From a virus (taxonomy: Duplodnaviria > Caudoviricetes): 62,787 bases of DNA. The position numbers were made by a program, and so were the translations under genes. The notes below the pieces were generated by a model, which saw only the letters and a list, made by a program, of their open reading frames with translations, was not told where the DNA came from and did not search any database. How positions within the stretch are numbered: position 1 is the stretch's first letter; every line of letters begins with the position of its first letter. The DNA lies in the IMG/VR virus record IMGVR_UViG_3300028423_000849, positions 1-62,787 of that record. One strand, 5' to 3'. Below are positions 27,522 through 58,632 of this stretch, piece by piece.

Positions 27522-28205
27522 TTATTTGAATCCAATCTGCATATATCGGGTGTAGATGGGCAATTCTAGTTTGCCTTCAAATAACACTTCACTCATTGGA
27601 TACCTTTCACGCATCTCTGCTCTACTTGCGCACACATTGGTGTGCCCGTCGAAGTGTTCACTGTTGTTGGTCTGCATGATCACAAGTTGGTCCTCTGCTA
27701 CACTGTCAAACCATTCTGTGCTCATGTGTTCACTGCTGGTGTTAATAACAACATCGGGCGTGACTTCTATGAGTTCGCCACTGGTTTGAAACTGCATAAA
27801 TGCACAGTCGAGCATGTTTACGTCTGCTACTACGCCCTTGTAAAGCCAATCTTGTTGTACTAGCCTTTGATTGAACTTTTCGCTGAGTTCAATGGCACGA
27901 GGATCTTGATCAAATCCATATACTTTGTTTATGCGTGGAGTTAGGTCGATCAGTGGCTCTACCAGTGTGCCAATCCAACAACCCAGTATAGCCACAGTAA
28001 GATTCGACTTTGACAGTCCTACAGCATCGGCATGCTGAAGTAACCATGCTTTGCTGGCCAGCTGACCTAGGCTAAATGCATCTCTGGGGTATTCAGGTTT
28101 GCTTGCTCTCTCAAGATAGCTGGGCCGGATCCACATTCCGCTTTCTGTGTCTAGCCACTGCTCGACCTGCTGCCAATCACTTAATGTTGTGCTGATATTC
28201 ATCAT
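27522..28205 (-). CDS. class I SAM-dependent methyltransferase-like protein
   Basis: VAILGCWIG, GFDQD, ADVN, VINTSSEHM; RBS AAGGAG. Confidence 0.7.
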   Translation of the reverse strand: MMNISTTLSDWQQVEQWLDTESGMWIRPSYLERASKPEYPRDAFSLGQLASKAWLLQHADAVGLSKSNLTVAILGCWIGTLVEPLIDLTPRINKVYGFDQDPRAIELSEKFNQRLVQQDWLYKGVVADVNMLDCAFMQFQTSGELIEVTPDVVINTSSEHMSTEWFDSVAEDQLVIMQTNNSEHFDGHTNVCASRAEMRERYPMSEVLFEGKLELPIYTRYMQIGFK

Positions 28206-31200
28206 ACTGCTCCTTGAGCCACTCATAGTCATTGATTTTGGCTAACCTCATGGGTTTGTTAGCATTGGCTTCGGCATAGTCGATGCCTGCTTGAGCGCCT
28301 GCTTTGGCTTCTTCTCTGTAATCCACCCCCGGTATAGGAAACAGCCAGCTCTGCAATCTCACACGTGAATCTTCATCGTCTTTCATGCTGAGTTTCACAC
28401 ACTCTCTGAATGCACTGCGCCATGTGCTGAAGCCGTCGGTGTTAAACTTAGTGGTACAGCTGATTTCGGGCATGGCTTTGAATCTACTGCTAAGGCCTGT
28501 GGTAAAGTCTAGACCCCAGCTGGTAGCATCACGAACCTGCTCGGTGTTAAACAGCTTTATGCCTCCGTAGCCATACTCGTGACCTGTGAGAGGATTTCGC
28601 GCATTCCACACGTGTGTAACTTCTTGATCATATACATCAGGAATATAGCTAAAGTCAAAGTCTTCGGAAACCTCGGCATCAGCATCTACGACCCAAAACA
28701 TAGTGCTCTGTACCTGCATAGCTGCTTGTTTGTGCGCTTCGAATATGCCTTCTACATCTTTGATCCAATGCGTATCAAAACGCTGTGTAAGACGTTTGTA
28801 TGCAGTCTCAGCCCCTGGTTCGTGATAGCTGATAAACACAATTTCATAGGATTTATATGTGCAACCTGGTGTTTGCATGTACTGCAGCTGTTTGAAACGG
28901 TTCAATCTGAGGTCGTCGCTGGTGGTTTCGGAGTAGTCTCTGTGAGTGGGCCACAGTCGAAGTCCGCCATAGCCGTGCACTTTCTCTGTGGTAGGGTTAA
29001 TCTTCTGCCACACATGAATTTTGTTGATGTTTGTGATCTCAGGCACAAAACCAGACTTTACAACCTGTTTCTGTTCTTCCACGTCTGGATCCACTGTCCA
29101 CATATAGTCATAGCCCTGCTGTTTGTATTCTTGTATTTTTTCCAAGAATTCGTCTCTCTTGAATTCAGTGATATGATAGATGGGCCATTCCTGCGTGGTG
29201 CTGGCAACAGTGTTTATCAATTTGAGATTGGGGAAACTGTTGTTGTTGATTTCTTTGGTAGTGTACTCGTGGCCTTGTGCATAAGTGCCCTTGGGATACA
29301 GTCTCACCCCTGTGTAGACATCTGCTGATGTGGAAAACACATGCACATTGTTTGCATCCCACTGAGTAGGATAGTAGTCGAAATCAAAATCTTCGTCGAG
29401 TTTCACAAAAGGGTCAACTACCCAATACATGTCTACGTCTGTGCTTGCTTCAAACTTTTCTAACTGTGCTACAATATCTTCTCTGTTATCCAAGTAATAG
29501 GTAGGATATGTTTTGTGTACACTGGCCGGCTCTCTGATATACTTGGGCCTCCCTTTGGTCTTGGGCTCTCGTGGACACAGCATCACACCGCCATAGTCAT
29601 ATTGCCTCTGAGTTTTTGGATTCAGTTTCTGCCACACATGTGTTTTGCCCTCGTCCCACACTTCTGGCACATAGTTGAAACTGAAGTCATCCATAACGTC
29701 AACATTGGGGTCTACCACCCAGAACCAGGCCTGTGATGTTTTTTCTCTGCCTTCTTCTTGACTGTGAAATACCTCATACTCTACTCTGCTGTTTCTCAGC
29801 TCGCCTCTGTGCACCACAGGCGCTTCTTTGGGATTAGATCTGGGCACCAAGTAGATGCCGCCTTCCTTGTCCGGGTATTTTTCTGTGAGTTGACCACTGA
29901 GCTTGAAGTTGATAATGTTGGTCTGTTCATCAAAGTCAGGCACATAATCCAGTTGATCAATGCGGTATCCCGAGTCTACCATCCAGAACATTTTTGTTCT
30001 GCTCTTCTTGGCATAGGTTTCAAACTGTGTGACATTGTTGGTGCGAAACACATCATATTTCAGAGGTGTTACACCTGCATGATACTTTTGCTTGGTTATG
30101 TCAAAGTCTCGATGTACCAGTCGAATACCTCCGCATCTTGAATCATATGGCTCTGTGATATTTTCTGGATAGCGAAAGTCTAGATGTCCGGGCAACTTGA
30201 ACACATGTATGTATTCCTGTTCGTGTTTGGCCGGCACATATAACAGTTTGCCATTGAAGCGAAAGTTTCTGTCAACCATCCAAAACCACTCGGTGCGGCT
30301 ACGCTGTGCATATTCTGTGTATGTGTCAGCAGTGAATTCATCGCTGTCAATGTAGAATACATCATAGTTGATGTCTTCAATGGGGCAATCTTGATGCACT
30401 TTGAGATCTGCATTTTTCCACTTTTTGGGAACAAGTCGAATACCGCCCATGGCTTTTGGATATTTCTCAGTGAGTTGGTTGGGCATGCGAAAACTGTGTA
30501 TCATCTGATCCTCAAACGGATTAGGCACCCAGTCTAGTGTGTTTGACTGCAGTTGATATTCTCTGTCAACAATCCACACATACTCTTCTGAGTACACATC
30601 ACGCTGAGTGTAGTCATCAACATCCTCACACCATATCACTGGGTATTCAACACCAGCATCCAAAAAACCATGATACTTGATATTAGCATCTTGCCACTCT
30701 CTGGGGTATAGCTTGATGCCGCCTTCCAGTTCCGGGTACTTGTGCTCCAGTTGATTTCTCAGATGAAAACTGTGTATGTACTTGGGCTCAAAGTTATCTG
30801 GTGCCCAGTCAATGTGATCGTTGAGTTTGTATTCTGGGTCCACACACCACACATGTGTGGCATAGGGATTGCGATCAAAGTATTTGCCCGGTGTCTTGGT
30901 GTTTACTATGTCAAAGCGTTTGCGGCACACAATGCGATTTACTTCTTTGATGCCTTGACTTTCACTGCGAGGCATGAGTTTGATGCCTCCATAGTTGTTG
31001 TTGTCCCATTTCCAAATATGTGTGTAGACTTGATCGTGATCAGGTGGGCGATACTCCAGCACGTCGTAGTTTAGCAATTCAACGTTGGGTTCGATAAGCC
31101 AGAACATTTTGGTGTTGGCTTCTACTTCTCTTTCACTGTCAATCCTCTGAGCAAAAGGTATATGCTCGCACAAGCTGGAATTTTCCCCTATATAGTATAC

Positions 31201-31218
31201 ATCAAACAATGTGTTCAC
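28177..31218 (-). CDS. 1013-aa protein of nine tandem GT-A-like modules
   Basis: Repeated W-x-V-D...Y/W-x-P...H-x-W/F...GG-x-x-L-x-P units; the last has VDAD and AFRECVKL. Confidence 0.8.
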   Translation of the reverse strand: MNTLFDVYYIGENSSLCEHIPFAQRIDSEREVEANTKMFWLIEPNVELLNYDVLEYRPPDHDQVYTHIWKWDNNNYGGIKLMPRSESQGIKEVNRIVCRKRFDIVNTKTPGKYFDRNPYATHVWCVDPEYKLNDHIDWAPDNFEPKYIHSFHLRNQLEHKYPELEGGIKLYPREWQDANIKYHGFLDAGVEYPVIWCEDVDDYTQRDVYSEEYVWIVDREYQLQSNTLDWVPNPFEDQMIHSFRMPNQLTEKYPKAMGGIRLVPKKWKNADLKVHQDCPIEDINYDVFYIDSDEFTADTYTEYAQRSRTEWFWMVDRNFRFNGKLLYVPAKHEQEYIHVFKLPGHLDFRYPENITEPYDSRCGGIRLVHRDFDITKQKYHAGVTPLKYDVFRTNNVTQFETYAKKSRTKMFWMVDSGYRIDQLDYVPDFDEQTNIINFKLSGQLTEKYPDKEGGIYLVPRSNPKEAPVVHRGELRNSRVEYEVFHSQEEGREKTSQAWFWVVDPNVDVMDDFSFNYVPEVWDEGKTHVWQKLNPKTQRQYDYGGVMLCPREPKTKGRPKYIREPASVHKTYPTYYLDNREDIVAQLEKFEASTDVDMYWVVDPFVKLDEDFDFDYYPTQWDANNVHVFSTSADVYTGVRLYPKGTYAQGHEYTTKEINNNSFPNLKLINTVASTTQEWPIYHITEFKRDEFLEKIQEYKQQGYDYMWTVDPDVEEQKQVVKSGFVPEITNINKIHVWQKINPTTEKVHGYGGLRLWPTHRDYSETTSDDLRLNRFKQLQYMQTPGCTYKSYEIVFISYHEPGAETAYKRLTQRFDTHWIKDVEGIFEAHKQAAMQVQSTMFWVVDADAEVSEDFDFSYIPDVYDQEVTHVWNARNPLTGHEYGYGGIKLFNTEQVRDATSWGLDFTTGLSSRFKAMPEISCTTKFNTDGFSTWRSAFRECVKLSMKDDEDSRVRLQSWLFPIPGVDYREEAKAGAQAGIDYAEANANKPMRLAKINDYEWLKEQYDEYQHNIK

Positions 31219-32732
31219 CTCTGATCATCTGTGTGTACTTTAACACCATAGTGTTCTGCAAAAGCATGTGCATCTAACTCGTCATTCACAATGGGCTGAC
31301 CTTTGATGTTGAGACTGGTATTTACCAGCATAGGACAGCCTGACTGTTTTTCAAATTCTGTGAGCAGTTTGAACAAGCCCGGATGCTGAGTTTGGTTCAC
31401 TGTTTGCACACGACTGGTACCATCGTGGTGTATGATAGCAGGAAACTCTTCGGGTCGTTTGCACTTGGCCACAAACTGCATGTAGGGACTAGCGCCTTTG
31501 CTGGGCATTTCAAAATACTCCTGTGCACGGTGCTCCAAAATCACAGGAGCAAACGGACGAAATTTTTGTCGAAACTTGATTTCGTTCATGCGATCCTTTA
31601 TGTGATCGCCTCTGGGATCAGCACACAAGCTACGATTGCCCAATGCTCTAGGACCAAATTCTGCTCTCCCGTTGGCTATACCAAAAATTTCATTGCGCGC
31701 CAGACTCTGTAGACATTTTTTCACAGGATAGGTGCCCGGGATATCTGTGCCCAAGTAAGGGCCTTGCCACTGTACAGGATTCCCAGTTAGATTATAATAG
31801 TCTAATGCTGCTGCACCCAGACTGCTGCCAGCATCGCCAGGATTAGGCATGATGTGCACATCATCGTAGAGCCCAAACAATCTGCTGTTTGCCACACAGT
31901 TCAGTGCAACGCCGCCCATAAACACAAGATTGCGATGTCCTGTGAGTGTGCGTGCATATCGAGCATATTCGTAGATGCGTTTTTCTACTATATTTTGTGC
32001 CGCCATGGCCAGATCAAAGTGATCAGCATCAGTGAATATGCCCCGAGGGATGCCGCGTTGTAGGTTACGTTTCATGTCAATGGCACGATACCCCGACTGC
32101 CAGCCATAGCTGACGTCAAAGAATCTGTCTTCCATAATTTCTTCGAGCTCACGAGCACGTTCTGGGTCGCCATAGGCTGCCATTCCCATCAGTATGTACT
32201 CGTCTTCCATGGGTTTGAGTCCTACGTGTGCTGTGACAGCACTGTAGAACAGTCCTAGGCTGCTGGGAAAACGCACACTGTGCAGTTTTTTTAGCTCACC
32301 GTCTTGCCAGTTCCAAATAGAAGCAGTGTCCCACTCACCAATAGCATCTATTACCATCACTGCTGCACTGTCAAGAGTCGACGTTAGCACACCTGCAGCA
32401 GCATGTGTTTGGTGATGCCAGTAGCTTTGCTGTGGCACTTCGCAGAGCTTGGGATAGAACTTCTTCATCCACTGTTGCTGTGATGGTTCTCTGAGTGCAC
32501 GCCAATTGCCACCTCGCATTTGTCTCAGCAGCTTTGCCCAGTGTTTCTCATGATATACAATGCGATCTGGTACACCATAGAACAGTGCATCAGATATCAA
32601 CATAGGATTAACAAAGGCATCGTTTTTGTGCTTGCTGTATCTTTCTGCGTGTCCTGCAAAAACAATTTTGCCGTTGTCTATCATTGTAACAGCAGCGTCA
32701 TGAAACATGCTGCTAATACCCATTATTCTCAT
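31215..32732 (-). CDS. O-carbamoyltransferase (NodU/CmcH/TobZ family)
   Basis: HDAA, ERYSKHKND, HHQTHAA, DAIGE, GGVALNC, EFGPRALGNRS, FRPFAP, NTSLN. Confidence 0.95.
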   Translation of the reverse strand: MRIMGISSMFHDAAVTMIDNGKIVFAGHAERYSKHKNDAFVNPMLISDALFYGVPDRIVYHEKHWAKLLRQMRGGNWRALREPSQQQWMKKFYPKLCEVPQQSYWHHQTHAAAGVLTSTLDSAAVMVIDAIGEWDTASIWNWQDGELKKLHSVRFPSSLGLFYSAVTAHVGLKPMEDEYILMGMAAYGDPERARELEEIMEDRFFDVSYGWQSGYRAIDMKRNLQRGIPRGIFTDADHFDLAMAAQNIVEKRIYEYARYARTLTGHRNLVFMGGVALNCVANSRLFGLYDDVHIMPNPGDAGSSLGAAALDYYNLTGNPVQWQGPYLGTDIPGTYPVKKCLQSLARNEIFGIANGRAEFGPRALGNRSLCADPRGDHIKDRMNEIKFRQKFRPFAPVILEHRAQEYFEMPSKGASPYMQFVAKCKRPEEFPAIIHHDGTSRVQTVNQTQHPGLFKLLTEFEKQSGCPMLVNTSLNIKGQPIVNDELDAHAFAEHYGVKVHTDDQR

Positions 32733-32747
32733 TGTGTGTCCTCTGTG

Positions 32748-32909
32748 TTAGTCGCCAAACAATCTGTGTGGCAGTTCTGTGATTATCTGTTCACGCTGTT
32801 GATCTGTGTAGGTTCGCCAGTGTGAGATTTCTGTGCCTGTGCGTCCGCATCCATTGCAGAATCCTGTGACAGGATTCATCTCACAGATGTTGATGCACGG
32901 CGATTTCAT
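32748..32909 (-). CDS. DUF1289-family Cys-rich protein (not in ORF track)
   Basis: MKSPCINICEMNPVTGFCNGCGRTGTEISHW...; 53 aa. Confidence 0.8.
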   Translation of the reverse strand: MKSPCINICEMNPVTGFCNGCGRTGTEISHWRTYTDQQREQIITELPHRLFGD

Positions 32910-33976
32910 CAACGATAGATAAATGGGTCTCGTTTGCGCAATTCTTCAATGCGGCGTTTGAGTTCTGCTTCTTGCTCTTCTTTTTCTGTGCCACTGGGGG
33001 GATTGCGATCAGTGCCCAGTGAGCCTTCGTGTGCTTCTTCGTTGTTATTGTTGTCATCTGACATAGCATTCTCCTTGTTGAGTATTTTGTAAAGTATATC
33101 AAATATTTTATGTTCAATTTGATCATCGCTGCAGTATCTGCGATTTCTTGACTGTTTGGGTATATTGAGTTTTCCATTGTTAAAATAGGGAATTATTTCA
33201 TTGTGCACAATATCGGCAATACAAGCATGATTTTTTATGCCGTGATGCGTGAGGTCTCTGGCAAAGTCAAGTTCATAATTATAGTGTTCGATGTCGATGT
33301 CTCTGGGTATTTCCAGAACATCAAAGTCGGCCAAAGGCTCTTCGCCGTCTGTGCTGAAAGTCCAGTGGTACACAGGAATACCTATGCTGTTCCACAACAA
33401 CGTAACTATATTTGTGTGCATGCTGGATTGAAACAGTGTGCTGATGTCAAAATTCTCAAATTCTTCAATTTCTGTGTAACGATCAATTTGGTCTTTGACA
33501 CGCACGCAAATATCGTGGTGATTATCGTGCTCCACAATTTCAGCATGCACTTTTCTTGCGCGTTCAGGATGCTGTATAATCACAAACTCGGGGCGCGGAA
33601 GGTTATTGTGAATATACAAATAGCTATTATAAAGAATAAATTGCAGACCTTGACCGGCTGCGCCAAGATTCAGAACATCAAGATCCATTGACCTTGATAA
33701 CACATTGCACCAGATGTTGTCCTCGGGCAAACCAGTGCCTTCGGTGTGACTACAGCCCATTGCAATGAAAAACTTTTCGTTGAGTTCTGTGAATTCTTTG
33801 GTGCGATATCCCAGAGAGTTGTATGTGTAACTTACGTTGGCACTGTGGTAAAACTCATCAACTTGACTCTTGTTTCTGAGATATTCTTCTTTTTCGTGCT
33901 CACTGAGCCATTCGCCAGAGAAGTTCATCAGCATGTCTCTGTGTATAATTGAATCGGCTCGGTGATTGTAGTGCAT
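32909..33976 (-). CDS. SGNH-hydrolase-like protein with in-frame C-terminal PFIY peptide
   Basis: NSLGYR, MGCSHTEG, NLGAAG, RDLTHHG; internal RBS and ATG at 33064. Confidence 0.7.
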   Translation of the reverse strand: MHYNHRADSIIHRDMLMNFSGEWLSEHEKEEYLRNKSQVDEFYHSANVSYTYNSLGYRTKEFTELNEKFFIAMGCSHTEGTGLPEDNIWCNVLSRSMDLDVLNLGAAGQGLQFILYNSYLYIHNNLPRPEFVIIQHPERARKVHAEIVEHDNHHDICVRVKDQIDRYTEIEEFENFDISTLFQSSMHTNIVTLLWNSIGIPVYHWTFSTDGEEPLADFDVLEIPRDIDIEHYNYELDFARDLTHHGIKNHACIADIVHNEIIPYFNNGKLNIPKQSRNRRYCSDDQIEHKIFDILYKILNKENAMSDDNNNNEEAHEGSLGTDRNPPSGTEKEEQEAELKRRIEELRKRDPFIYR

Positions 33977-34092
33977 AATGCTCTATTTATCTGCTGTTTT
34001 TACTACAGCACAGTGTTTGTGATTTTTTCATGTTGTTCTAGTGTCTGATGTGCAGACGCATAAATATATGTTTATTACCAATATTCACGTCT

Positions 34093-34689
34093 ATGAGCTT
34101 TTCTACTGTGTCACAATTTGAAACTGTGGTTGCTGATTTCTTTGGTGCGCCATATGCTGTGGCTGTTGACTGTTGCACTCACGGAATTGAATTGTGCTTG
34201 AGATTACAACAATCAGACAATGTGAGCTGCCCCAAACACACATATCCCAGTGTGCCATTTGTGTTTGAAAAATTAAACCTGCAGTGGCATTTCCGTGATC
34301 TCAAGTGGCAGGACTATTATCGCATAGGCAACACAAATATTTTTGATGCGGCAGTTCTCTGGAGAGAACACAGTTACATGCCCGGCACACAGATGTGTTT
34401 GAGTTTTCAATTCAAAAAACATCTCAGTCTTGGCAGAGGCGGCATGATTTTACTGGATGACCAGCAGTCATGCAGACAATTAAAAAAGATGCGCTATGAC
34501 GGCAGAGACGATGACCTGCCATGGGTACAACAAAACATTGACACAGTGGGGTATCACTATTACATGACCCCGGAAACTGCTCAGCGTGGTCTAGATCTTT
34601 TTGCCAATGCATGTGCCACAGAGCCTCCTAGATGGGACGACAGCTGCTACCCCGATCTCAGCACAATGAAAGTGTTCAATGATGTCTAA
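34093..34689 (+). CDS. short DegT/DnrJ/StrS-family PLP aminotransferase
   Basis: AVAVDCCTHGI, FDAA, LSFQFKKHLSLGRGG (PLP lysine), GYHYYM. Confidence 0.85.
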   Translation: MSFSTVSQFETVVADFFGAPYAVAVDCCTHGIELCLRLQQSDNVSCPKHTYPSVPFVFEKLNLQWHFRDLKWQDYYRIGNTNIFDAAVLWREHSYMPGTQMCLSFQFKKHLSLGRGGMILLDDQQSCRQLKKMRYDGRDDDLPWVQQNIDTVGYHYYMTPETAQRGLDLFANACATEPPRWDDSCYPDLSTMKVFNDV

Positions 34690-37755: not shown

Positions 37756-38249
37756 AGATCTAACTCGCCTGTGATTTGCAGTGTGTATCGGGGTTCAATG
37801 CCAATGTTGCTGGCAGCATGAGGAACTTCTTCGCTCCACACTGCATAGTCGCCGGCCTTCCAGGTGCACCAGCTTGATCCATTGGCTTCAAAGTAATGGC
37901 CGCTTTTCCAATCTTCTAGGAACACCAAGGCACGGCCTACACGTTCTCGATCCACACCGAACACCTTCATGTAAGTTTCAAAGTGATCTGTGTGCACAGG
38001 CATGATGTCTAGGGTATTCATGCGGTAGATCACAAAGCCGGGTTTAGCAAGTCCAATTTGTTCTGCAATGGGTTCTACCCACCCAGGCATAGGATTCTTG
38101 CTGCTATACATGCTACCCGAAAAACTTTCGTTGTAGTAGCCTTGTTCTCTCCACTGTGTGATTTCGCTTTCTTTGATAGGTTGTTTGACAAACTCCAGCT
38201 GTTTGTAGCTGTCGTCCCAGGTGGGTTTTACTGATCCATATTTTAGCAT
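37752..38249 (-). CDS. 2OG-Fe(II) oxygenase-like protein
   Basis: HTDH, PHAASN, PRYTLQITG. Confidence 0.7.
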   Translation of the reverse strand: MLKYGSVKPTWDDSYKQLEFVKQPIKESEITQWREQGYYNESFSGSMYSSKNPMPGWVEPIAEQIGLAKPGFVIYRMNTLDIMPVHTDHFETYMKVFGVDRERVGRALVFLEDWKSGHYFEANGSSWCTWKAGDYAVWSEEVPHAASNIGIEPRYTLQITGELDL

Positions 38250-39211: not shown

Positions 39212-39213
39212 TT

Positions 39214-42167: not shown

Positions 42168-42168
42168 A

Positions 42169-44474: not shown

Positions 44475-44475
44475 A

Positions 44476-50401: not shown

Positions 50402-51825
50402 CAGTTCACACTCACAATGGGGATTTCGCCCTTGGCTAACTCTTTGCACTCGTTCCAGAAGTTTTCATACTCTGGGAATGTTTTCAAGAAGTCAGTACCT
50501 CGCCTGCGATCATATTCAGTGAACCAATTGTAAAAGTCAATTCTCCCTTCTCTCACTCGTGCTTCGTCGTACTGTGTGCTAGCAAAGTAATCTCTCACAC
50601 GGCGGAAACGCTCATACTCGATTTCAGAGAACTTTTTAGTGTCTGATTCGTCAATGTTGTCCTGAATAAACTTCAAGCAATCATCAAAGTAGGGCATGAA
50701 CTCTTCCTTGGGCAGGATATGCATGTCATACTGTATGGGCTCTTTGAGATAGGGTGTGTCAAAACGGATCTTGCGCACTGTGGGGTCACTGCCTAGATTA
50801 TCAGGTATGATGTCATCATAGCGTTCGCGCCACACCAGCATCTGCTCCAAGTACTCTTTGAATGTGGTTACACTGAGTATGTTGAACGTGCACATGTGTG
50901 TGATATGACTCTTAATACCACGCAGATAGATGTCCTGATTGCGATCCCAGGTTTCTAGATCCATGCCTGTGCGCATATACTCCACGCTTTCGCCCCAGCC
51001 GTCAATGCTACTGAACATCTTGAATTGTCGTATTTTGTTGCTTTCAAGTAGATCGTTTACATTTTCCACAAGTCGCTCCACATGGCGACTCTTCATGCCA
51101 AGGTTACTGTTTACATTGATTTCTAAATGTGGCTTGGGATCGTTTCTAAGCTCGTCAAACAGTCTCCAGGTGCTGGCATGCAACAGTGGTTCACCGCCTG
51201 TGATTCTGAGAATATTCAAGGTCTTGCTCACTTCAGGCCACCACCGCCACCATGCTTCCAAATAAGGATTGTTGTCTTCGGTGTACACATCAAACCAGTC
51301 GATGTCGTTGCGATGATTTTTGACCATGTCATAGGCGCCATGCTTTTTGATCTCTTGATAATAGCTGCTGCTGTGCATTGGATGACAATAACCACACTTG
51401 AAGTTACACTCGTTGGAGAATGCAATCTCAATGTACTCGGGATTAATTTTGAGATCAGGTGGGCCATAGAGAATTTCATCATAGCGATCCTCAGTGTAGA
51501 TACTGCTGTTGCGTATCAAGCGGTCGCTTACATAGTCATCGCCCATGTCTTCCACGTTCCAGCAATACTGACAGCCTTCGGGCCGTTCGCCGTTGAGCAT
51601 CTGTATGCGTTCATCGATCTTTTGAGGAGTGTTATGAAGCGTACTGGGATCAAACTTGAGTTCCTCCACAGGGATATCATGTGGCTTGGGATGATAGCAA
51701 CTGTGAGTCTGGCCTCGGTGTAGATAGATGGTGGTGTGATGCCATTTGGCCAAGCAGAAAGTTGGACTGATGTCCTCCTTCATCATGGTGTTGATTTCAC
51801 GCATACGATCGATGCGGTCACTCAT
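50401..51825 (-). CDS. radical SAM enzyme with N-terminal Cys/His domain
   Basis: FCLAKW...SCYH...GCQYC, then CNFKCGYC and TGGEP. Confidence 0.9.
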   Translation of the reverse strand: MSDRIDRMREINTMMKEDISPTFCLAKWHHTTIYLHRGQTHSCYHPKPHDIPVEELKFDPSTLHNTPQKIDERIQMLNGERPEGCQYCWNVEDMGDDYVSDRLIRNSSIYTEDRYDEILYGPPDLKINPEYIEIAFSNECNFKCGYCHPMHSSSYYQEIKKHGAYDMVKNHRNDIDWFDVYTEDNNPYLEAWWRWWPEVSKTLNILRITGGEPLLHASTWRLFDELRNDPKPHLEINVNSNLGMKSRHVERLVENVNDLLESNKIRQFKMFSSIDGWGESVEYMRTGMDLETWDRNQDIYLRGIKSHITHMCTFNILSVTTFKEYLEQMLVWRERYDDIIPDNLGSDPTVRKIRFDTPYLKEPIQYDMHILPKEEFMPYFDDCLKFIQDNIDESDTKKFSEIEYERFRRVRDYFASTQYDEARVREGRIDFYNWFTEYDRRRGTDFLKTFPEYENFWNECKELAKGEIPIVSVN

Positions 51826-51860: not shown

Positions 51861-52571
51861 CTATTTATCAGGGGAGACCAGCCAGTCGTATAATATACTT
51901 GCCAACAATTCATGACCTAGCTGAGAGGGGTGATGGCACCCAGTAATATACGGTGATTTTTTGGCAAATCTTTCAGACAAATATCTATATGTTTCACGAG
52001 ATACTCCTGTGTGAGGATGTTCATTGTGTTCAAAATGGCCCTGTTTAACGTCACCGGCTGTCTTGTCTTTTACACATAGATCGTAGAGCGTTGAATAGGG
52101 TTTATCGTACCACAGCCAGTTTCTAGTGCAATGCTCCGGCACAGGTTTTGGTGCGGAAAGCCTATAATCTTGAAAAGAACTCAGATAGTAGTATTCACAG
52201 CCAATGTTATCTAGATAATCGGTGGTTTTTAGTATAGCATTAAGCCACATTGATGGACTATAATAATCCTTGTCATAATAAAGATTTTTTCTGCTTGTGC
52301 CTGACCATGATACTATTACTAGGTCGGCCTTGCTGACTCCCATGGTTAACAATGTGTTGTATATGTCCCAGTTGCTTGCACCACGTCTGCCATAATCTAG
52401 ATAGTTAAGTTTGAGATTTTTGGCGAGTATTTCCGTGAAGGGTTCTGCTTGTTGAAAACCTCTGCGTCCCCGATAGTCTACAGGGTCTTTGATACACCCC
52501 CACACAAAGCTATCTCCAACTGCAACGAGACGCCTGGCATCATCTTGTTGGGAATAGTTATAACAGTACAC
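51861..52571 (-). CDS. SGNH-hydrolase-like protein
   Basis: VGDSF, GASN, SWS...R, HHPSQLGH. Confidence 0.7.
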   Translation of the reverse strand: MYCYNYSQQDDARRLVAVGDSFVWGCIKDPVDYRGRRGFQQAEPFTEILAKNLKLNYLDYGRRGASNWDIYNTLLTMGVSKADLVIVSWSGTSRKNLYYDKDYYSPSMWLNAILKTTDYLDNIGCEYYYLSSFQDYRLSAPKPVPEHCTRNWLWYDKPYSTLYDLCVKDKTAGDVKQGHFEHNEHPHTGVSRETYRYLSERFAKKSPYITGCHHPSQLGHELLASILYDWLVSPDK

Positions 52572-52590: not shown

Positions 52591-52618
52591 AGAAATACAG
52601 GGCGCGAACGCCCTGTAT
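52591..52618 (-). terminator. intrinsic terminator after the UDP-sugar dehydrogenase gene
   Basis: Minus strand ATACAGGGCG-TTCG-CGCCCTGTAT-TTCT. Confidence 0.7.
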
Positions 52619-52641: not shown

Positions 52642-53949
52642 TTAGCGAGGTGCTTCAGTGCGTGTGTTGCCATAATGGACCACACGCACACCATCCATGG
52701 TAGGGAGTTTTCTCCAGGGATCAACCACTACACTGCCGGGTGCAAACTTGAGTTCAGACCCGTTGGCTGTGGCCACCGTGAGTGCTTCATCGCAGTCTGT
52801 GATACGATGATCACCATACCAGTTACCCACAAAATCCAGTTGCTCACCATAGGTGATTTCTGGGTTGTGTGCTATCAGGTACACAGCAGAGTTTTCTAGC
52901 ACTTCTGCAGGCGGTGTTTCGCCGATTACTTCGTCCAGATAGTACATGGGCACGTCTGATAGCTCTTCAACATAGTGGCCCACCAGCATGCTGCTACTGC
53001 CTGTTTCATAAGGAACTAGTGGCTTGTAGGCCTTGCCCACAATGACCACAGGCGCACCCAGTTGCTTGGCTTCTGAGATCAGCCTATGTGCCATGTTCTT
53101 GGCTTGAACTTCACGTGAGTGCATCACTGAGTCAAACAGATCATAGCCCAGATCCAGTTGCTCTGCCATCCAACGCAGTGCAATGTTGTCTCTGGGATGA
53201 CAAGCACCGCCGTCACCCATACCAGGCTTCATGTATGCTGGACCCATGATGCGTCTGTCTGATGCAGCAAGAGCATCACACACCAACTCTGCGTTGATAT
53301 TGCCCTGCTTTTCTGCAACGTCCTGAATCATGTTTACCAGGCTGACCTTGGCACTGATGAAGGTGTTGTAGAACACCTTGATTGCTTCAACTTCGTCCCA
53401 GGTACCAGTCACATAACGAGGTTCGTTCTGCATGATGGTCTTGTAGAAGTCCACTAGCTGTTTGGCATCGCCTGTTTCTGCACCGTCTTCTGTGCCAATC
53501 ATGATCATCTCTGGATTAACCATGTCCCACTTCACAGTGCCCATGGCAATCAGATAGGGATTGTACACAAATCTTGTGTTGGTCATAATGGGCACAAACT
53601 CTCTGCGAGTTGTGCCGGGCAGGACTGTGCTGATTAGTACTATTAGCTGGTCCTGGGTTGCTACTGCATTTACCTCTGACAGAACCTGCTTGACAATAGT
53701 GTAATCAAAGTCCTTGTTGGGTAAATGGCTGGTTGGCGCATTGCCATCATATTGTGGATCATGCGGTGTTTCCACAGCAATGAATACAATATCGCGACCT
53801 ACTACTGCTTCCTGCAGTGTAGGAACCATTGAAAAGTTTTCTGGTTCACGTGGTGCAATATCATAACCCACAACATCATGGCGCTCAGCGACCATTTCGG
53901 CGCAAGCCTGTCCTAGCTTGCCGACTCCGATAAATCCGATCGAGGCCAT
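52642..53949 (-). CDS. ugd: UDP-glucose/GDP-mannose 6-dehydrogenase family
   Basis: GVGKLG, AVETP, STVLPGTT, EAIKVFYN, GDGGACHPRD, AYKP; RBS AAGGAG. Confidence 0.88.
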   Translation of the reverse strand: MASIGFIGVGKLGQACAEMVAERHDVVGYDIAPREPENFSMVPTLQEAVVGRDIVFIAVETPHDPQYDGNAPTSHLPNKDFDYTIVKQVLSEVNAVATQDQLIVLISTVLPGTTRREFVPIMTNTRFVYNPYLIAMGTVKWDMVNPEMIMIGTEDGAETGDAKQLVDFYKTIMQNEPRYVTGTWDEVEAIKVFYNTFISAKVSLVNMIQDVAEKQGNINAELVCDALAASDRRIMGPAYMKPGMGDGGACHPRDNIALRWMAEQLDLGYDLFDSVMHSREVQAKNMAHRLISEAKQLGAPVVIVGKAYKPLVPYETGSSSMLVGHYVEELSDVPMYYLDEVIGETPPAEVLENSAVYLIAHNPEITYGEQLDFVGNWYGDHRITDCDEALTVATANGSELKFAPGSVVVDPWRKLPTMDGVRVVHYGNTRTEAPR

Positions 53950-53995
53950 TTTTTTCTCCTTTTGTTGTTTTTTGTGCACTAAGCACAGTGTGTAT

Positions 53996-54772
53996 TTACT
54001 GGTTTTCTGAGGATTTGTCCATAGTTTCTGAATCGTTTGCCTGTGTGAGTATTTCCATGTACTTGTAGAAATCATAGAACTGATCTGGCGTGAGCACAGC
54101 AGGATTGTCGCTGTCCGGGTCGCCTAGGTATTTTTCAATGTAGTCCACGCCCTTGTATACCACTGCTGAACCAGGAAAAAGACCAGCATCTCTGCTTTCA
54201 TAGCCCACTGTGTGTCCTTGTGCTATTAGATCATCGATGCTGCTGAGATTCATGTCTGTGATATCAGGCGGAAACTCAGGTGTTGTGTAATACACACTGT
54301 AATGAGGATTTTGCTCTTTGTGATAGAGCACATTATATTCACTGTGATGATGATGATTGTATATCACCCAGAGAAACTTGTCTTTGCAATAGCGACTAAG
54401 TTCGTAGACATTGACACTGTCATAGTGCAGTTTTACAGTGTCACAGTTGGTGTGTTCTTTGACAAACTCTGCTGCCTGGCTGTCAGTGACACTCCAGTAT
54501 AAAGGAATACCGATGTGTTCGCAGAGTTTTGCAATGTGTTCAGCATTGTCAGCTGTTATTTCACTGCGATTGGCCACTTCCAGATATGAAAGTCCTCCCC
54601 AGCGACTCTGCACCGACACATACTTTTTTTCGTCAGGAATGATCAGTGCCGGTGTGGCTTTGTTGATAATTACAGCATCAGCATTGCACTGTGCTGCTGC
54701 AACAATTCGACTTTCAAGCACACTTATAGAATTTTCGTGAGCAATGCCAATGTTAGCATACAGCTTGGACAT
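53996..54772 (-). CDS. degenerate NeuB/SpsE-like (sialic acid synthase fold) protein
   Basis: ANIGIAH (cf. AEIGxNH), CNADAV, IGIPLYWSVTD, VGYES, YIEKY. Confidence 0.65.
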   Translation of the reverse strand: MSKLYANIGIAHENSISVLESRIVAAAQCNADAVIINKATPALIIPDEKKYVSVQSRWGGLSYLEVANRSEITADNAEHIAKLCEHIGIPLYWSVTDSQAAEFVKEHTNCDTVKLHYDSVNVYELSRYCKDKFLWVIYNHHHHSEYNVLYHKEQNPHYSVYYTTPEFPPDITDMNLSSIDDLIAQGHTVGYESRDAGLFPGSAVVYKGVDYIEKYLGDPDSDNPAVLTPDQFYDFYKYMEILTQANDSETMDKSSENQ

Positions 54773-54785
54773 TGTGTCCCCTTTA

Positions 54786-55784
54786 TTATCCTAGCAGGCC
54801 TTTTTCCAATAGCTCTTGTATTTGTTTTTCTCGAATCATCACACCCCAGCGTCTAGGATTCACAAATGTTTTCTTGAAGAATCTGCACATCTGTGGATCA
54901 GGATCAAACAGCATCATTTCTCTGATATTTTCATTGAGTCTCCGTCCTAGATCCTTGATTGCAATATATAACATATCGTTGTCCCAGGTGACTTTTGTGT
55001 ATCTACATTTGTGGCTGTCGCCAGGAAATCTGGGCAATACATCATTGTAGAAAAATTGCTTGAACCACTCGTAGTCTGCAATGTGATTTGCCTCCCACTG
55101 TGAAAGCACTGTCATTTCACAGCCTAGGCGAGCACCATAGATGGCCCATAGGCCGTTTTCTACATCTGAGCCAATGTTACACCATGTTTGCAGCCTATTG
55201 TAGTTCTGCCACCATACGCGGTTTATAAACTCGTCGGGCTCCACACGATTGCCCTGATCCAAACTCATTTTTACACCTTCGCGGAACCCTGCGCGAAATG
55301 CCTGAAAAGGCGATGCAGTTTGATGTACTTCTGAAAAAGTGTCATTCAGCTGAATATAGTTGAGCTTCCAGCAAAACTCCATGCCTTCGTCATCATCGGA
55401 TGCTTCGTGAGTGCGAATTGTTTTGGTGTATTCCGTGGGCCAGCATTTGAGACCGCCATTGCCATACACCAAGCCGTTTAACAGATTCTTGGCATTCCAT
55501 GAAAAAATACTCTCTGATACATCATTGCCATCGTGGTCTGTGTCGGGGATATCCAATGTTTGCTCAAAGAAGTCATCCATCACAATGTTGTCACCATCCA
55601 CTGTGATAAATCGTTCTGTTTCGCTTTGTTCTGCGGCTGCTTTGTGTGCAGAATCAAAACCTTTGACACCATGTATACGTTTTGCCCAAGGCACTTTGTT
55701 GAGCAGGTCCGCCCAGTGCTCTTCGCAGTTGGGCTCATCGTAGCTAATATAGAAAATATCTAGTTCTGTGACGTCGATCTTCAT
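54786..55784 (-). CDS. GT-A-like glycosyltransferase, standalone paralog of the last module of 28177-31218
   Basis: ISYDEP, GVKGFDSAHKAAA, TVDGD, YGNGGLKCWP, FREGVKM. Confidence 0.7.
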   Translation of the reverse strand: MKIDVTELDIFYISYDEPNCEEHWADLLNKVPWAKRIHGVKGFDSAHKAAAEQSETERFITVDGDNIVMDDFFEQTLDIPDTDHDGNDVSESIFSWNAKNLLNGLVYGNGGLKCWPTEYTKTIRTHEASDDDEGMEFCWKLNYIQLNDTFSEVHQTASPFQAFRAGFREGVKMSLDQGNRVEPDEFINRVWWQNYNRLQTWCNIGSDVENGLWAIYGARLGCEMTVLSQWEANHIADYEWFKQFFYNDVLPRFPGDSHKCRYTKVTWDNDMLYIAIKDLGRRLNENIREMMLFDPDPQMCRFFKKTFVNPRRWGVMIREKQIQELLEKGLLG

Positions 55785-55799: not shown

Positions 55800-56468
55800 T
55801 TATGTTCTCAGGTATTTATCGAAAATCTTATTGGTGTATAGCCCACAGTGTTCGAGATCAATGCCGAGATCAAACTCTACTTTGTCGTTGATCAAGAGAT
55901 CTGCAATGCCTGTGTTTTTGTATTCGTACATGATGTGTGGGTCGCCGGGCTTGGTGATATAGAATCTCAATATGCGATAGCCATTGCGTGTAGCACTCAC
56001 AGGATACACACCCTCATACTCATCTTTGATCCGTTGACTCATCTCCACAGTGAGTTTTTTCCCTTTGATGTTGCACTTGATATCAAAGTCCTCTGTGTCG
56101 CCAAACTCAACCTCTTGTAAAAACTGATCGTTGGAAAGTATTTTAACTGTGTCAATGGGTTTGAGTTCTACATGAAATATATTTTTGTCTTTGGTGTCTT
56201 GCACCACTTGATATCTGCGCAGATCTTTGTCAATGAGGTTTTCTAGATCTTCCTGCGGAAAATCATAGGTGTGCCAGTCTGGAGCAACATCTTCTACTTC
56301 GTTTTGTGTCAAGCACTCAATTGTGCCTTCTGAACTGAAATACAGCTTCCAGGGTCGCGTCTTTAGCTCTTTCATGAGAGCATCTGCACTGCCGCCGCTT
56401 TCCTGTTTTCTACTCATGAATTTTTGTCTGCGTTTTTCTGCAGCACTTGTAATGTCATTGTCTGACAT
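55800..56468 (-). CDS. hypothetical protein
   Basis: 222-aa ORF in the operon. Confidence 0.7.
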   Translation of the reverse strand: MSDNDITSAAEKRRQKFMSRKQESGGSADALMKELKTRPWKLYFSSEGTIECLTQNEVEDVAPDWHTYDFPQEDLENLIDKDLRRYQVVQDTKDKNIFHVELKPIDTVKILSNDQFLQEVEFGDTEDFDIKCNIKGKKLTVEMSQRIKDEYEGVYPVSATRNGYRILRFYITKPGDPHIMYEYKNTGIADLLINDKVEFDLGIDLEHCGLYTNKIFDKYLRT

Positions 56469-57321
56469 AGTCGTTCTCCATTTGCTTGATCATGCTGTTG
56501 GTGATCCAATCTTTGTCCACATAGTGAAAAGGCAGTGTCTGCTGATAATTGCCAACCTTGAAACTGTTGTATTTGCTGTAATACACAGGTAGACTATTGG
56601 TCCATAGATCGGATATTTGCACCTGTTTGATGTTTTGCACATGACTTTTCATGTGCACAAAAGTTGGCATGCTGTCGATGTTTTCACGCACGCAGTGATG
56701 CTCAATCCCCAACAGTTGCATTGCTAATGCGTATGCAACGTCCCCGCTTAACCAGTCGGGTTTTCCTCGTGGCATATACTTGTAGAAAAATCGCTCCCAG
56801 TGCTGAAACACAATTTCTATCATGTGAAATAGTTCTGCTGAGAGATCGCATTTCTTGAAATAGAAGAATGCTGTGTACACATTGGGAAGGTTGTTGTTAA
56901 CAAAGTATTCTCTGTAGTAGTTGCTGTCTACTACCTCGCCGCGATAGTTTCTCACAGTGGTAGTGGCCCATACATCGCGTTGACACAGGATATCCCACCA
57001 ATGACTAACATCTGTGGGAAACAACATGTCTGTGTCAAGTATTACTGTTTCGTCATAGGGAGACATGTAAAAGTATTTCCACTTGTTGTGTATTTTCCAC
57101 TGTTTGTTCACAGCAGCGTCAGCCCAGGGTATATCCACAATGTGATCAAAAACTTCTCGGTGTTTCTGTGTGATTTTTTTCTTGGTTTCTGCATCTACGC
57201 ACACAGTGAGATTGTTCACTGTGCTTTGTGTGAGTTTGAGATTCAGTGCTAATGCATATGCTTGACGCAGATAATCTACGTCATCTGTGTTCTGTGCAAT
57301 TACCACATAACCGCGGCTCAT
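56455..57321 (-). CDS. GT-A glycosyltransferase (GT8-like)
   Basis: SPYDETVILDTD, late FVHMK; RBS AAGGA. Confidence 0.75.
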   Translation of the reverse strand: MSRGYVVIAQNTDDVDYLRQAYALALNLKLTQSTVNNLTVCVDAETKKKITQKHREVFDHIVDIPWADAAVNKQWKIHNKWKYFYMSPYDETVILDTDMLFPTDVSHWWDILCQRDVWATTTVRNYRGEVVDSNYYREYFVNNNLPNVYTAFFYFKKCDLSAELFHMIEIVFQHWERFFYKYMPRGKPDWLSGDVAYALAMQLLGIEHHCVRENIDSMPTFVHMKSHVQNIKQVQISDLWTNSLPVYYSKYNSFKVGNYQQTLPFHYVDKDWITNSMIKQMENDYVRQ

Positions 57322-58286
57322 GTTGTTTTCCTTCTGACAGATTTTTTCTTGTTGGCTTTGCTGTTTGACCCGGATTTGTCTTCTTGATCGGGGCTCATCA
57401 ACTGCATGAGCTTGCCGCTTATGCGATCTATTGCCCATTTATTCATCACGTGTATGTCTACGCCTTTCCAGTTTGTCAAGATAAATTCGTTGGGTGCAGT
57501 GGGTTTCTGCAGATAAAAAACAACTTCATCAGCAGACATCACATCATAGATATCATCAACATCAAAGGTTTTATGCAGTGTCACTGGCAGTTGATGAACT
57601 GCACAATTTTGAAATCCGCCTAGCATATGAGCTGCAATGCTAAAACTGTAGTCGTTGCGGTAGAATTTTGTGTTCCAATCATAGAGATCCTTGTGATATT
57701 CTGGGTTGTCTCTGACATACTTCACTATTTCAAAAAAGCTCTCTGCATAGGCAGTCTTCTGAAAGTATACCACAGTTGCCCAATACATATTAGGACCCGT
57801 AGGCGAAATTCGATCAAGTCCTCTGAATTTTCTGCCAGCATAGATATCGTTGAACTCATAGTTCATCATGAGATCGTTTTTGTGCCCCCAACATCGATTC
57901 AAGCTATCACTGAAAATCAAATAATCACAGTCTATGAGAATGGTTTCATCATAGGGAGACAGCTCAAAAGCATCACAGCGATCCACATTGTAAAATGAAA
58001 GTTTTTCGGCAGACTGAATAGAATCCTTGTATACCTTGATGTTTTTGTTTTCAAAGTCGCTGTCTTTTTCGATGCATAGAATGTTCGAGCTGGCTGACTC
58101 AATCAGAGTTTTGTCCAAGGTGTTGTTGGCGTTTTCAATGGTTTGGGAGTTTGACACAATGGTAATCTGATCAGCAGTTAGGCCAAGATGCTTTTGTGCC
58201 AAGAGAGCATTCATCACTGCCATGCGAAAATAATCAATGCTGCCATTGTTGTGGGCAAACATTATGATGCCGCGACTATCAGTCAT
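57318..58286 (-). CDS. GT-A glycosyltransferase, paralog of 56455-57321
   Basis: SPYDETILIDCD, RNDYSFSIA, HVMNK. Confidence 0.75.
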   Translation of the reverse strand: MTDSRGIIMFAHNNGSIDYFRMAVMNALLAQKHLGLTADQITIVSNSQTIENANNTLDKTLIESASSNILCIEKDSDFENKNIKVYKDSIQSAEKLSFYNVDRCDAFELSPYDETILIDCDYLIFSDSLNRCWGHKNDLMMNYEFNDIYAGRKFRGLDRISPTGPNMYWATVVYFQKTAYAESFFEIVKYVRDNPEYHKDLYDWNTKFYRNDYSFSIAAHMLGGFQNCAVHQLPVTLHKTFDVDDIYDVMSADEVVFYLQKPTAPNEFILTNWKGVDIHVMNKWAIDRISGKLMQLMSPDQEDKSGSNSKANKKKSVRRKTT

Positions 58287-58632
58287 CGATGATATCTACA
58301 ATTTTGTGTACTTTGCGAGCCTTTCTTAGCTTTTCGTACTCAGCATAATAGTCGTTGGTGACTTCAAAATACCTGCTAAGTATTTCATCGTAGAATTCTC
58401 TGAGATCCACTTGGATTGGGTTGTCATAGATATCCAAGAGCACTGCTTGTTTTTTCTTGTCATCCAGCAACAATTTACAGAATGTAAGTAGCTCTCGATT
58501 AATGGTGAATGTGCCGCCATTGATGCTGTAGCTCAACAGACTCTGTGTTTTTGATTTCAACACCTGTTGTTGATTGTTTAAAGTTGCTCGATAGTTGGCA
58601 AATTCAAGTGCTTTGGTAAGTTTTGCGCTCAT
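58279..58632 (-). CDS. hypothetical protein
   Basis: First gene after ATAAATA at 58676-58682 (minus strand). Confidence 0.7.
   Translation of the reverse strand: MSAKLTKALEFANYRATLNNQQQVLKSKTQSLLSYSINGGTFTINRELLTFCKLLLDDKKKQAVLLDIYDNPIQVDLREFYDEILSRYFEVTNDYYAEYEKLRKARKVHKIVDIIDD

Follow-up and report, generated by a model that had tools for sequence, protein, structure and literature searches.

Large variable islands in the structural region of aquatic T4-like myophages, the host recognition clusters (HRCs) of pelagimyophages and cyanomyophages, mix tail-fibre genes with genes for glycosyltransferases (GTs, with GT8 the commonest), UDP-glucose dehydrogenase and radical S-adenosylmethionine (SAM) enzymes, and their function has been read, in a proposal not yet tested, as modification of the host O-chain (PMC7029224, Zaragoza-Solas et al. 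2020). Glycosylation of virions is described for mycobacteriophages (Freeman et al. 2023, cited in PMC12619734), and in these phages and in giant viruses soluble, virus-encoded GT-A enzymes act in the cytoplasm to glycosylate structural proteins of the virus itself; four core GT groups have also been noted, and left unresolved, in aquatic 'moraphages' (PMC12619734). Phage clusters that glycosylate 5-hydroxymethylcytosine (5hmC) in DNA are numerous, sometimes lie near structural genes and make mono- to trisaccharides (Pyle et al., 10.1101/2023.12.21.572611). Here we describe, in the uncultured caudoviricete record IMGVR_UViG_3300028423_000849 (62,787 bases, the whole of which is called the window below), a 31-kb block of 28 genes, g01–g28, that we are confident serves glycan assembly and tailoring, and we weigh what the glycan may be built on.

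Like an HRC, the block is a variable island with fibre genes, GT8-like GTs and a UDP-sugar dehydrogenase (Ugd). Unlike the HRC carriers, its phage is a jumbo phage, and its g13, g20, g24 and g26 proteins match no cultured cyanomyophage or pelagimyophage (E ≤ 1e-5); HRCs lie between VrlC and the neck gene gp14, landmarks that the window, a 17% fragment, does not contain. The mycobacteriophage systems have two or three GTs and none of the radical SAM, amidino and carbamoyl tailoring seen here, and the PBCV-1 enzyme A64R (2p6w/2p72) and the Che8 GT stand near g24 at fold level only, with weak scores. We did not find such a glycan cluster described in the literature searched, although supplementary tables of the cited papers might list such genes; this fits the view of the preliminary description, made from the sequence without database searches, that pathways of this scale are barely characterised in phages, though fibre-linked GT islands have been described. 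New here are the largest version among the loci seen, with its amidino/carbamoyl/B12 radical SAM module, fold evidence for two unannotated GT families, a link of one of them to Ugd through gene fusion, and a protein of nine GT-like modules.

The window is the complete IMG/VR record, for which CheckV gives a completeness of 17%; by extrapolation the genome is roughly 370 kb, the size of a jumbo phage. Positions 1–27.5 kb carry plus-strand replication and nucleotide genes, including a T4-type DNA polymerase 42–46% identical to its closest counterparts, in the jumbo phages Phosso, Vibrio 2.275.O and Atu_ph07, and RNase H-like, GalE, FolE, QueE-like and HNH endonuclease genes. Minus-strand genes fill the stretch between 61.8 and 27.5 kb; in their reading direction fibre-like g30 and g29 come first and are followed by the block, which is thereby placed transcriptionally downstream of tail genes, as originally described (Table 1). 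The 28 open reading frames (ORFs) stand back to back, 26 on the minus strand and two (g05 and g06) on the plus strand. If each ORF is taken at its longest, neighbours overlap at 18 of the 27 junctions and no gap exceeds 176 nt, in keeping with the tight packing noted at the outset. None of the 31 window proteins g01–g31 reaches a Kyte–Doolittle value of 1.6 over 19 residues, which bears out the earlier statement that the block holds no recognisable flippase, Wzy polymerase or other multi-pass membrane protein. Families were assigned with Pfam, PHROGs and NCBIfam models, and BLAST joins three sets of paralogues: g06/g08/g13/g15, g26/g27, and g24 with the C terminus of g02.

The chance that the block is host DNA misassembled into a phage contig, an artefact that the preliminary description had itself considered, is negligible. 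The GC content is slightly lower in the block (0.440 vs 0.469). Phage genes, however, flank it on both sides of one contig, its gene order is shared by a sequenced isolate and numerous IMG/VR contigs, codon usage correlates between block and remainder of the window at r 0.934 (0.96 between split halves), and an identical g13 protein is recorded from three contigs, the longest of 157 kb. The block is therefore phage DNA.

Table 1. Positions of the block genes g01–g28, of the adjoining fibre-like genes and of a terminator-like hairpin in the window, with product assignments.
Feature	Position	Strand	Assignment and supporting matches
g01	27522..28232	-	236 aa; Rossmann-like protein of the conserved core
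g02	28177..31218	-	1013 aa; nine tandem GT-A-like modules, only the last a full g24-like domain
g03	31215..32732	-	NodU/CmcH-type carbamoyltransferase; Carbam_trans_N 1e-40, Carbam_trans_C 4e-54, phrog_1601 4e-97
g04	32909..33976	-	355 aa; SGNH-like by motif (GCSHTEG) only; charged C-terminal tail; no family match
g05	34048..34689	+	213 aa; short DegT/StrS-like pyridoxal-phosphate protein; PF01041 2e-14, 54 bits (cut-off 19.8)
g06	34679..35692	+	GT-B paralogue; BLAST to g13 4e-13, g15 6e-8, g08 2e-6
g07	35679..36419	-	246 aa; weakly SGNH-like; GCSHTAG block
g08	36412..37755	-	GT-B paralogue; BLAST to g13 3e-14
g09	37752..38324	-	190 aa; candidate small 2-oxoglutarate (2OG)/Fe(II)-type oxygenase
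g10	38243..39211	-	StrB1-like amidinotransferase
g11	39214..39903	-	SGNH-like, DUF6071-type
g12	39900..42167	-	755 aa; class B (B12-binding) radical SAM; PF02310 4e-10, PF04055 6e-18
g13	42169..43680	-	503 aa; GT-B at ~125-503 plus small N-terminal Rossmann-like domain
g14	43665..44474	-	SGNH-like family; homologues in 40/79 loci
g15	44476..45681	-	GT-B paralogue; BLAST to g13 9e-29
g16	45662..46657	-	331 aa; radical SAM; PF04055 3e-7; weak N_Twi_rSAM and viperin-like matches
g17, g18, g19	46639..50449	-	three paralogous N-twitch radical SAM; NF033640 1e-109, 7e-109, 5e-110
g20	50401..51825	-	N-twitch radical SAM of the conserved core; NF033640 3.6e-88
g21	51861..52571	-	SGNH-like, by hhalign to g14 family
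Hairpin	52595..52618	-	terminator-like, between g22 and g21; 10-bp stem, 6 GC pairs, T-rich tail
g22	52642..54075	-	UDP-sugar 6-dehydrogenase (Ugd); PF00984 4e-18, PF03721 7e-14
g23	53996..54772	-	258 aa; NeuB-like, barrel domain only; PF03102 1e-13
g24	54786..55784	-	core GT-A-fold transferase with helical C-domain, by predicted structure
g25	55800..56468	-	222 aa; no family match; 0/79 loci
g26	56455..57438	-	GT8-like GT-A enzyme; likely start Met40 (57321)
g27	57318..58286	-	GT8-like GT-A enzyme, paralogue of g26
g28	58279..58632	-	117 aa; first core gene; frame overlaps g27; no family match
g29	58794-59771	-	325 aa; tail-fibre-like; outside block; candidate acceptor
g30	59790-61778	-	662 aa; tail-fibre-like; outside block; candidate acceptor; phrog_19602 'tail fiber' 7.5e-11, phrog_22593 4e-19

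The three GT-A enzymes first proposed are recovered, g24 through its predicted fold and DxD motif and g26/g27 through a profile match to glycogenin. The g24 model (pLDDT 85.6) has a GT-A-type N-domain at residues 1–156, and all 50 structural neighbours listed by VIA are GT-A, nucleotidyltransferase or structurally related chains (Z 10.4–7.6, ~125–145 residues aligned), led by B4GALNT1 (Z 10.4, rmsd 3.1 over 140 residues), STIV A197 (9.8), SpsA (9.0) and PBCV-1 A64R (8.7). The Che8 GT and the peptide S-glycosyltransferases SunS and ThuS are also among the structural neighbours of g24, and Foldseek gives weak GT-A matches. Both aspartates of the DxD motif, D63 and D65 (VDGDN), are invariant in 26 sequences. 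The GT-A family of g24 and g02 has at least 7,994 relatives, at up to 94% identity and on contigs of up to 322 kb; none of the 120 g24-family relatives listed has a Pfam domain, and their sole source name is 'hypothetical protein'.

The nine-module architecture reported for g02 is reproduced by a hidden Markov model (HMM) of the g24 N-domain, which finds nine domains, the C-terminal one at 1.4e-30; by BLAST, residues 792–1003 are 29% identical to g24 (3e-16). A motif expression recognises eight modules, against 0 in 1000 shuffles, and the ninth (~593–650) was placed by eye. Module 9 has a DxD motif (VDADA) and module 8 retains D-P-D; modules 1–7 may be inactive, because the second aspartate is lost in them. 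Look-alikes of 1076 and 804 residues from uncultured phages are present in BFVD.

For g26 and g27 (mutual BLAST 9e-10), a joint profile (A10) matches 19 glycogenin-1/2 sequences of family GT8 at E 1.1e-6 to 1.6e-5, over residues 12–106 only. Because neither protein has a Pfam match at E ≤ 0.01 and the gathering score of PF01501 is not reached, we call them GT8-like rather than members of GT8. The Atlas entry of g26 begins at residue 40; of the named clusters, those called GT8/Nucleotid_trans lie closest to it (score 0.96, 169–170 shared features), a lead only.

Four further proteins, g06, g08, g13 and g15, had been called GT10-like, a label that is fair at the level of the predicted fold and not as family membership. 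The g13 model (pLDDT 80.8) has 57 Foldseek matches at E ≤ 1e-3, the rows listed being nearly all of GT-B fold, and four GT10 fucosyltransferases stand within its top ten structural neighbours; first among these in VIA, however, is T4 beta-glucosyltransferase (1c3j; Z 10.4, 276 residues, rmsd 4.7), followed by FUT9 (9.3), Gtf3 (8.9), H. pylori fucosyltransferase (8.7), FUT11 (8.5) and mango FucT13 (8.2). The GT10 model PF00852 matches none of the four proteins and none of 120 listed homologues, and the family profile (A1) finds no usable match among PDB sequences. Residues N287, R294, E372, E397 and K398 are invariant in 30 sequences, an arrangement that looks similar to the alpha-1,3-fucosyltransferase pattern of GT10 (an acidic/Asn strand, a ..TEK.. 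donor-binding motif after it and an upstream Arg). Fusions of this family to Ugd, 768–793 residues long, make up 14 of the 120 listed g13-family homologues. Since its relatives are often fused to Ugd, the GT-B family probably handles a uronic acid or is tied to a uronic-acid donor, to judge by sequence. Natural fusions of Ugd with a g13-type GT-B domain (~770–790 residues) occur in relatives, among them P0160–P0223, L032:8720-11089 and L006:8756-11086.

The rank of T4 beta-glucosyltransferase raises the alternative that the sugars are added to, and decorated on, a modified base of phage DNA for evasion of restriction. We think this improbable, although DNA too would be a conserved acceptor, 5hmC-glycosylating clusters are numerous and sometimes near structural genes (10.1101/2023.12.21.572611), and the isolate that shares the core of the block, Ralstonia phage RsoM2USA, has two thymidylate-synthase-like genes (PMC8504454). 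The Z values of the GT-B neighbours are tied to within ~1–2 units, with protein- and glycan-acting enzymes alongside. The clusters of Pyle et al. have as their defining neighbours a cytosine methyltransferase and a 5mYOX/TET enzyme; Pfam, PHROGs and NCBIfam models find neither of these, nor a hydroxymethylase, among the 28 proteins, of which g01 and g09 are unassigned. Eight GT-like and five SGNH-like proteins also exceed what the mono- to trisaccharides of those DNA glycans would call for (10.1101/2023.12.21.572611), and a separate FolE plus QueE-like 7-deazaguanine module already lies among the replication genes of the other strand.

That FolE and QueE-like group is an observation in its own right: GTP cyclohydrolase I (FolE, 4e-37) and a QueE-like radical SAM protein (phrog_2076, 9e-50) stand with a phosphoribosyltransferase at 11697–13937 (+) and 10897–11451, a grouping suggestive of a module for 7-deazaguanine modification of DNA that is distinct from the glycan island.

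Donor synthesis is represented by g22, g23 and g05, and the Ugd, NeuB-like and aminotransferase assignments of the preliminary description hold with the limits given in Table 1. The match of g22 to phrog_9148 (5e-95) begins at residue 46, and its true start is probably Met43 (~53949). No homologue of g23 occurs in the 79 viral loci compared below. The DegT match of g05 (2e-14) is to a short form of 197–221 residues that is kept in 11 related loci, against a normal length of ~370; because the short length is conserved, g05 appears to be a truncated but maintained form and not a fragment. A UDP-glucose 4-epimerase, GalE (9998–10975 (+); TIGR01179, 343 bits, above the cut-off), is encoded outside the island and could supply it with UDP-galactose-type donors.

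The carbamoyltransferase g03, which has both Pfam domains, and the amidinotransferase g10 are as first described. Over residues 6–321, g10 matches the solved amidinotransferases StrB1 (1bwd, 1.2e-60), HsvA (4e-36), AGAT (2e-32) and SxtG (7e-28), the similarity to StrB1 being full-length. Two other assignments fared less well. The methyltransferase proposed for g01 was a motif reading: this protein, 33% identical to RsoM2USA ORF347 and with homologues in 12 of 79 viral loci, has no Pfam, PHROG or NCBIfam match, and its profile (A8) reaches only E 0.15 against the PDB. The 2OG oxygenase placed in the block is likewise g09 by motif, with H111, D113, H169 and R179 invariant in 11 sequences, no Pfam match and AtsK at E 0.5 as the best PDB profile match; a Pfam-supported oxygenase, g31, lies outside the block. 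It is one of two prolyl-hydroxylase-type 2OG-Fe(II) oxygenases (PF13640) at the ends of the window, at 333–821 (+) and 61899–62774 (+), the latter being g31, which stands directly upstream of fibre gene g30 and divergent from it.

The claim of five SGNH-like proteins holds in part. The Atlas structure of g11 scores TM 0.73–0.75 to viral clusters named DUF6071 or 'SGNH hydrolase-type esterase', and hhalign links g21 (E 3e-8, probability 95%), g11 (8e-4) and the g07 family (A6 vs A5, 5e-3) weakly to the g14 family; g04 is unlinked to that family and carries the motif alone, and BLAST joins none of the five. The g14 family itself, with G21-C22-S23 and D217/H219/P220 invariant in 24 sequences, matches no Pfam family and no PDB sequence, and its D-x-H spacing differs from the canonical D-x-x-H of SGNH enzymes.

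All six radical SAM enzymes of the preliminary description are recovered: g12 (B12 type) and g16 (plain) by Pfam, and g17–g20 (N-twitch) by NF033640 (N_Twi_rSAM), against which the four score 296–368 bits (cut-off 170) with positions 1–397/398 covered. Their cluster motif CxxxCxxC (C140, C144 and C147) is invariant, as are N-terminal Cys residues; g17–g19 are 33–41% identical to one another, and no function was found described for the NF033640 family in the literature searched. The B12-binding and radical SAM domains of g12 score above their cut-offs (PF02310, 39.9 bits vs 32.1; PF04055, 66 vs 29.5), and its best NCBIfam matches are B12 radical SAM C- and P-methyltransferases, all below their own cut-offs, with AprD4 weak; g12 is likely a methylase.

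These tailoring enzymes could also be thought to make a diffusible product, either an aminoglycoside-like or other small molecule from the g05–g12 part (DegT-like protein, amidinotransferase, carbamoyltransferase and B12 radical SAM enzyme) or a peptide or protein matured by the twitch and B12 radical SAM enzymes in the manner of ribosomally synthesized and post-translationally modified peptides (RiPPs) and then glycosylated. StrB1, the closest solved relative of g10, belongs to streptomycin biosynthesis, g03 is of NodU/TobZ type, RiPP C-methyltransferases head the NCBIfam matches of g12 (with AprD4 weakly), and SunS and ThuS are among the neighbours of g24. We give this only a slim chance: the family models and the hydrophobicity scan brought up neither a synthase for a cyclitol or scaffold nor an exporter, a resistance gene or a recognisable precursor peptide, every NCBIfam match of g12 falls far below its family cut-off, and eight GT-like proteins together with fibre synteny suggest a glycan that is polymeric or bound to protein.

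Bacterial relatives of g20 were collected from 207 genome stretches (79 loci kept), and neighbourhoods were examined in the 12 loci on long contigs (124 ORFs). The closest, at 43–55% identity, are in metagenome-assembled genomes (MAGs) of Bdellovibrionota. In six of the 12, GT, sugar-nucleotide, export or LCP functions are encoded less than 5 kb away, specifically ABC-2 exporters, PMT_2, MBOAT, GT2, GT9 and LCP; one of the 12 lies between flagellins; and five show nothing related, one of them adjoining a g24-like gene. This context leans to glycan chemistry but is not decisive. The flagellin case is a g20 homologue (52% identity) between two flagellin genes on a 172-kb Pseudobdellovibrionaceae contig (L086:6159-12416), an arrangement that recalls flagellin-modification loci; it was seen in 1 of the 79 loci only, and we make no use of it. 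Four loci filed under MAGs, the pair L102 and L103 (a 'Rickettsiales' MAG) and the pair L105 and L132 (a 'Haliscomenobacter' MAG), carry the whole multi-gene set of fibre and glycan genes seen in the phages; they are probably of phage origin and were binned with bacteria, or else are a hint of the host.

Relatives of the whole island are frequent among viral contigs. A query with the GT-B family gave 434 confirmed viral stretches, from which 79 loci were kept and a gene was counted as present at E ≤ 1e-5. Homologues of g08, g13 and g15 occur in 79 loci each, g06 in 68, g17, g18 and g19 in 64 each, g20 in 60, g22 in 53, g14 in 40, g02 and g24 in 37 each, g26 in 29, g27 in 28, g16 in 27, g12 in 26, g28 in 23, g03 and g10 in 15 each, g09 and g29 in 14 each, g30 in 13, g01 in 12, g05 in 11, g04 in 9, g07 in 8 and g11 in 2; g21, g23, g25 and g31 have none. 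The recurring order is fibre–g28–g27–g26–g24–(g02/g01)–g20–GT-B–g14–Ugd, while the tailoring genes come and go; three loci (L003, L041 and L030) resemble the window nearly gene for gene. Comparison across relatives, a check that the preliminary description had put forward, thus finds a kept core order and a variable tailoring set. Of the 159 fetched loci, 26 have g28, in every case together with g27, g26 and g24; the g28/g27 frame overlap is present in 21 of 22 loci, and a g29/g30-like gene stands just before g28 in 15 of the 17 loci with 2 kb or more of upstream sequence.

The core has a single carrier in 50,697 phage records, RsoM2USA (MG752970; PMC8504454), in which ORF347–355 form a collinear minimal version of ~7 kb at 29–50% identity. 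The order there is a fibre-like gene, g28, g27, g26, a small ORF, g24, g20, a g24/g02-like gene and g01, directly after baseplate, sheath and structural genes (PMC8504454). Identity is 50% for g24 (ORF350), 39% for g26 (ORF352), 34% for g27 (ORF353) and 34% for g20 (ORF349, between two g24-like genes), the last reaching 72% in viral loci. RsoM2USA lacks the GT-B paralogues, Ugd and all the tailoring genes; every core gene is annotated 'hypothetical protein', and the core goes unmentioned in the searched text of the paper (PMC8504454). A near-identity DNA search with positions 27522–47000 of the block and a tblastn search with g13 found no match in the same records, and tblastn with g18, g20, g24 and g26 found RsoM2USA only, apart from additional g18 matches in two Vibrio phages and one marine virus at 21–26% identity.

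Reading the chemistry from family membership, we propose the following line of assembly. Ugd, the NeuB-like barrel and the short DegT-like protein, with GalE elsewhere in the window, would provide unusual donors, from which up to eight GT-like proteins (three GT-A, the nine-module GT-A-like protein and four GT-B) would build an oligosaccharide. A swappable set of enzymes would then tailor it: the carbamoyltransferase, the amidinotransferase, the B12 radical SAM methylase and the small oxygenase, together with four N-twitch radical SAM enzymes of unknown chemistry and SGNH-type proteins that may be acyl transferases or esterases. The acceptor would most likely be made by the phage, the best candidates being the Ser/Thr-rich fibre proteins whose genes stand immediately upstream; the glycan would then be on the virion surface. 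The Ser+Thr fraction of g29 and g30 is 0.23 and 0.20, against 0.11 in other proteins. That this is a cytoplasmic line working on a phage-made acceptor, probably the fibre proteins, we regard as an evenly balanced proposition.

A phage-made acceptor is preferred because the core is conserved across diverse phages and sits in the structural module. Conservation at 30–50% identity across phages of varied sources, one of them RsoM2USA with its soil host, would fit a phage-encoded acceptor better than hypervariable O-antigens. The resemblance of g26/g27 to glycogenin, a protein-priming GT8, may point to a protein acceptor, and predicted structures give g24 and g13 neighbours that glycosylate virus capsids or proteins, namely PBCV-1 A64R, STIV A197, Gtf3, the Che8 GT and SunS, which would suit a virion target.

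The preliminary description reached a similar assembly line on the virion or on DNA; the phage-borne, soluble cluster for building and tailoring a glycan stands, and the acceptor is a matter of proposal. Its argument that the missing flippase and Wzy speak against host O-antigen conversion is weak, because the GTs of ordinary O-antigen synthesis are themselves soluble or peripheral proteins whose product passes to Wzx/Wzy or ABC exporters of the host. Soluble GTs of the phage might in the same way act on lipid-linked O-antigen, capsule or glycoprotein intermediates of the host, for instance to block superinfection, with a host flippase or exporter completing the task. The bacterial N-twitch radical SAM genes found near ABC-2, PMT_2, MBOAT, GT2, GT9 or LCP genes agree with such remodelling of the host envelope, and a change of the host O-chain is the published reading of the comparable fibre-linked GT8/Ugd islands in pelagimyophages and cyanomyophages (PMC7029224). 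We nevertheless consider it unlikely here: the 28 genes include no priming transferase, flippase, polymerase, ligase or membrane protein, host glycans are hypervariable but the core is kept in phages whose hosts evidently differ, the island is integrated with the genes for structural proteins, and a short lytic cycle would leave little time for surface turnover.

Several observations weigh against glycosylated fibres as well. The fibre or virion target is favoured only by synteny and by conservation of the core in phages from different habitats, and fibre synteny equally underlies the O-chain reading of HRCs (PMC7029224). In 2 of the 17 loci no recognisable fibre gene precedes g28, the predicted GT-B fold has a DNA glucosyltransferase as its top neighbour, the bacterial neighbourhoods of g20 relatives are mixed, and g01, g04, g07, g09, g25 and g28 stay at motif level or have no assignment.

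Signals that might govern expression were compared with chance expectation. The heptamer ATAAATA occurs 16 times against 5.5 expected (~3x), a count that none of 100 shuffles attains. Every copy is on the local coding strand; copies stand shortly before g04 (8–14 nt), g20, g24, g28 and g30, but the heptamer precedes replication-side genes too. Of the full T4 late box, TATAAATA, there is a single copy where 0.95 would be expected. Late-type motifs had been reported before several genes: an enriched motif is indeed there, and 'late' can be said of it by analogy only, because the full box is not enriched. Sigma-70-type promoters are not enriched (36 vs 36.1 and 28 vs 30.8 expected), and terminator-like sites are barely so (22 vs 15.4 and 16 vs 13.8 expected). 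Among the plus-strand genes, an HNH endonuclease at 18882–19388 (+) (phrog_16726, 4e-29) lies amid replication genes and is probably a homing endonuclease, and a MoxR-like AAA ATPase followed by a DUF2201 metallopeptidase/VWA protein (22496–25041 (+)) forms a conserved phage pair of unknown role.

The island type is widespread among viral contigs, and it gathers uncharacterised families that are common in metagenomes: the g24/g02 GT-A enzymes, the Ugd-fused GT-B enzymes and the N-twitch radical SAM enzymes. Its minimal core in an isolated phage, RsoM2USA, is cultivable and makes the question experimentally approachable. Our fullest picture, offered tentatively and held with less conviction than a phage-made acceptor as such, is of an abundant lineage of uncultured jumbo phages that coats its own fibres with an acidic glycan bearing guanidino, carbamoyl, C-methyl and acyl groups, its sugars edited by N-twitch radical SAM enzymes, a hitherto unstudied class, that would form a dyad with a new GT-A family (g24/g02). 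If the coating of fibres is true, no larger virus-encoded pathway of protein glycosylation would be known in phages, and new radical sugar chemistry would be involved. If the product is on the virion, long autonomous glycosylation pathways would be a property of phages as well as of giant eukaryotic viruses, with a bearing on host recognition, on shielding from defences and grazers and on the stability of the particle in water.

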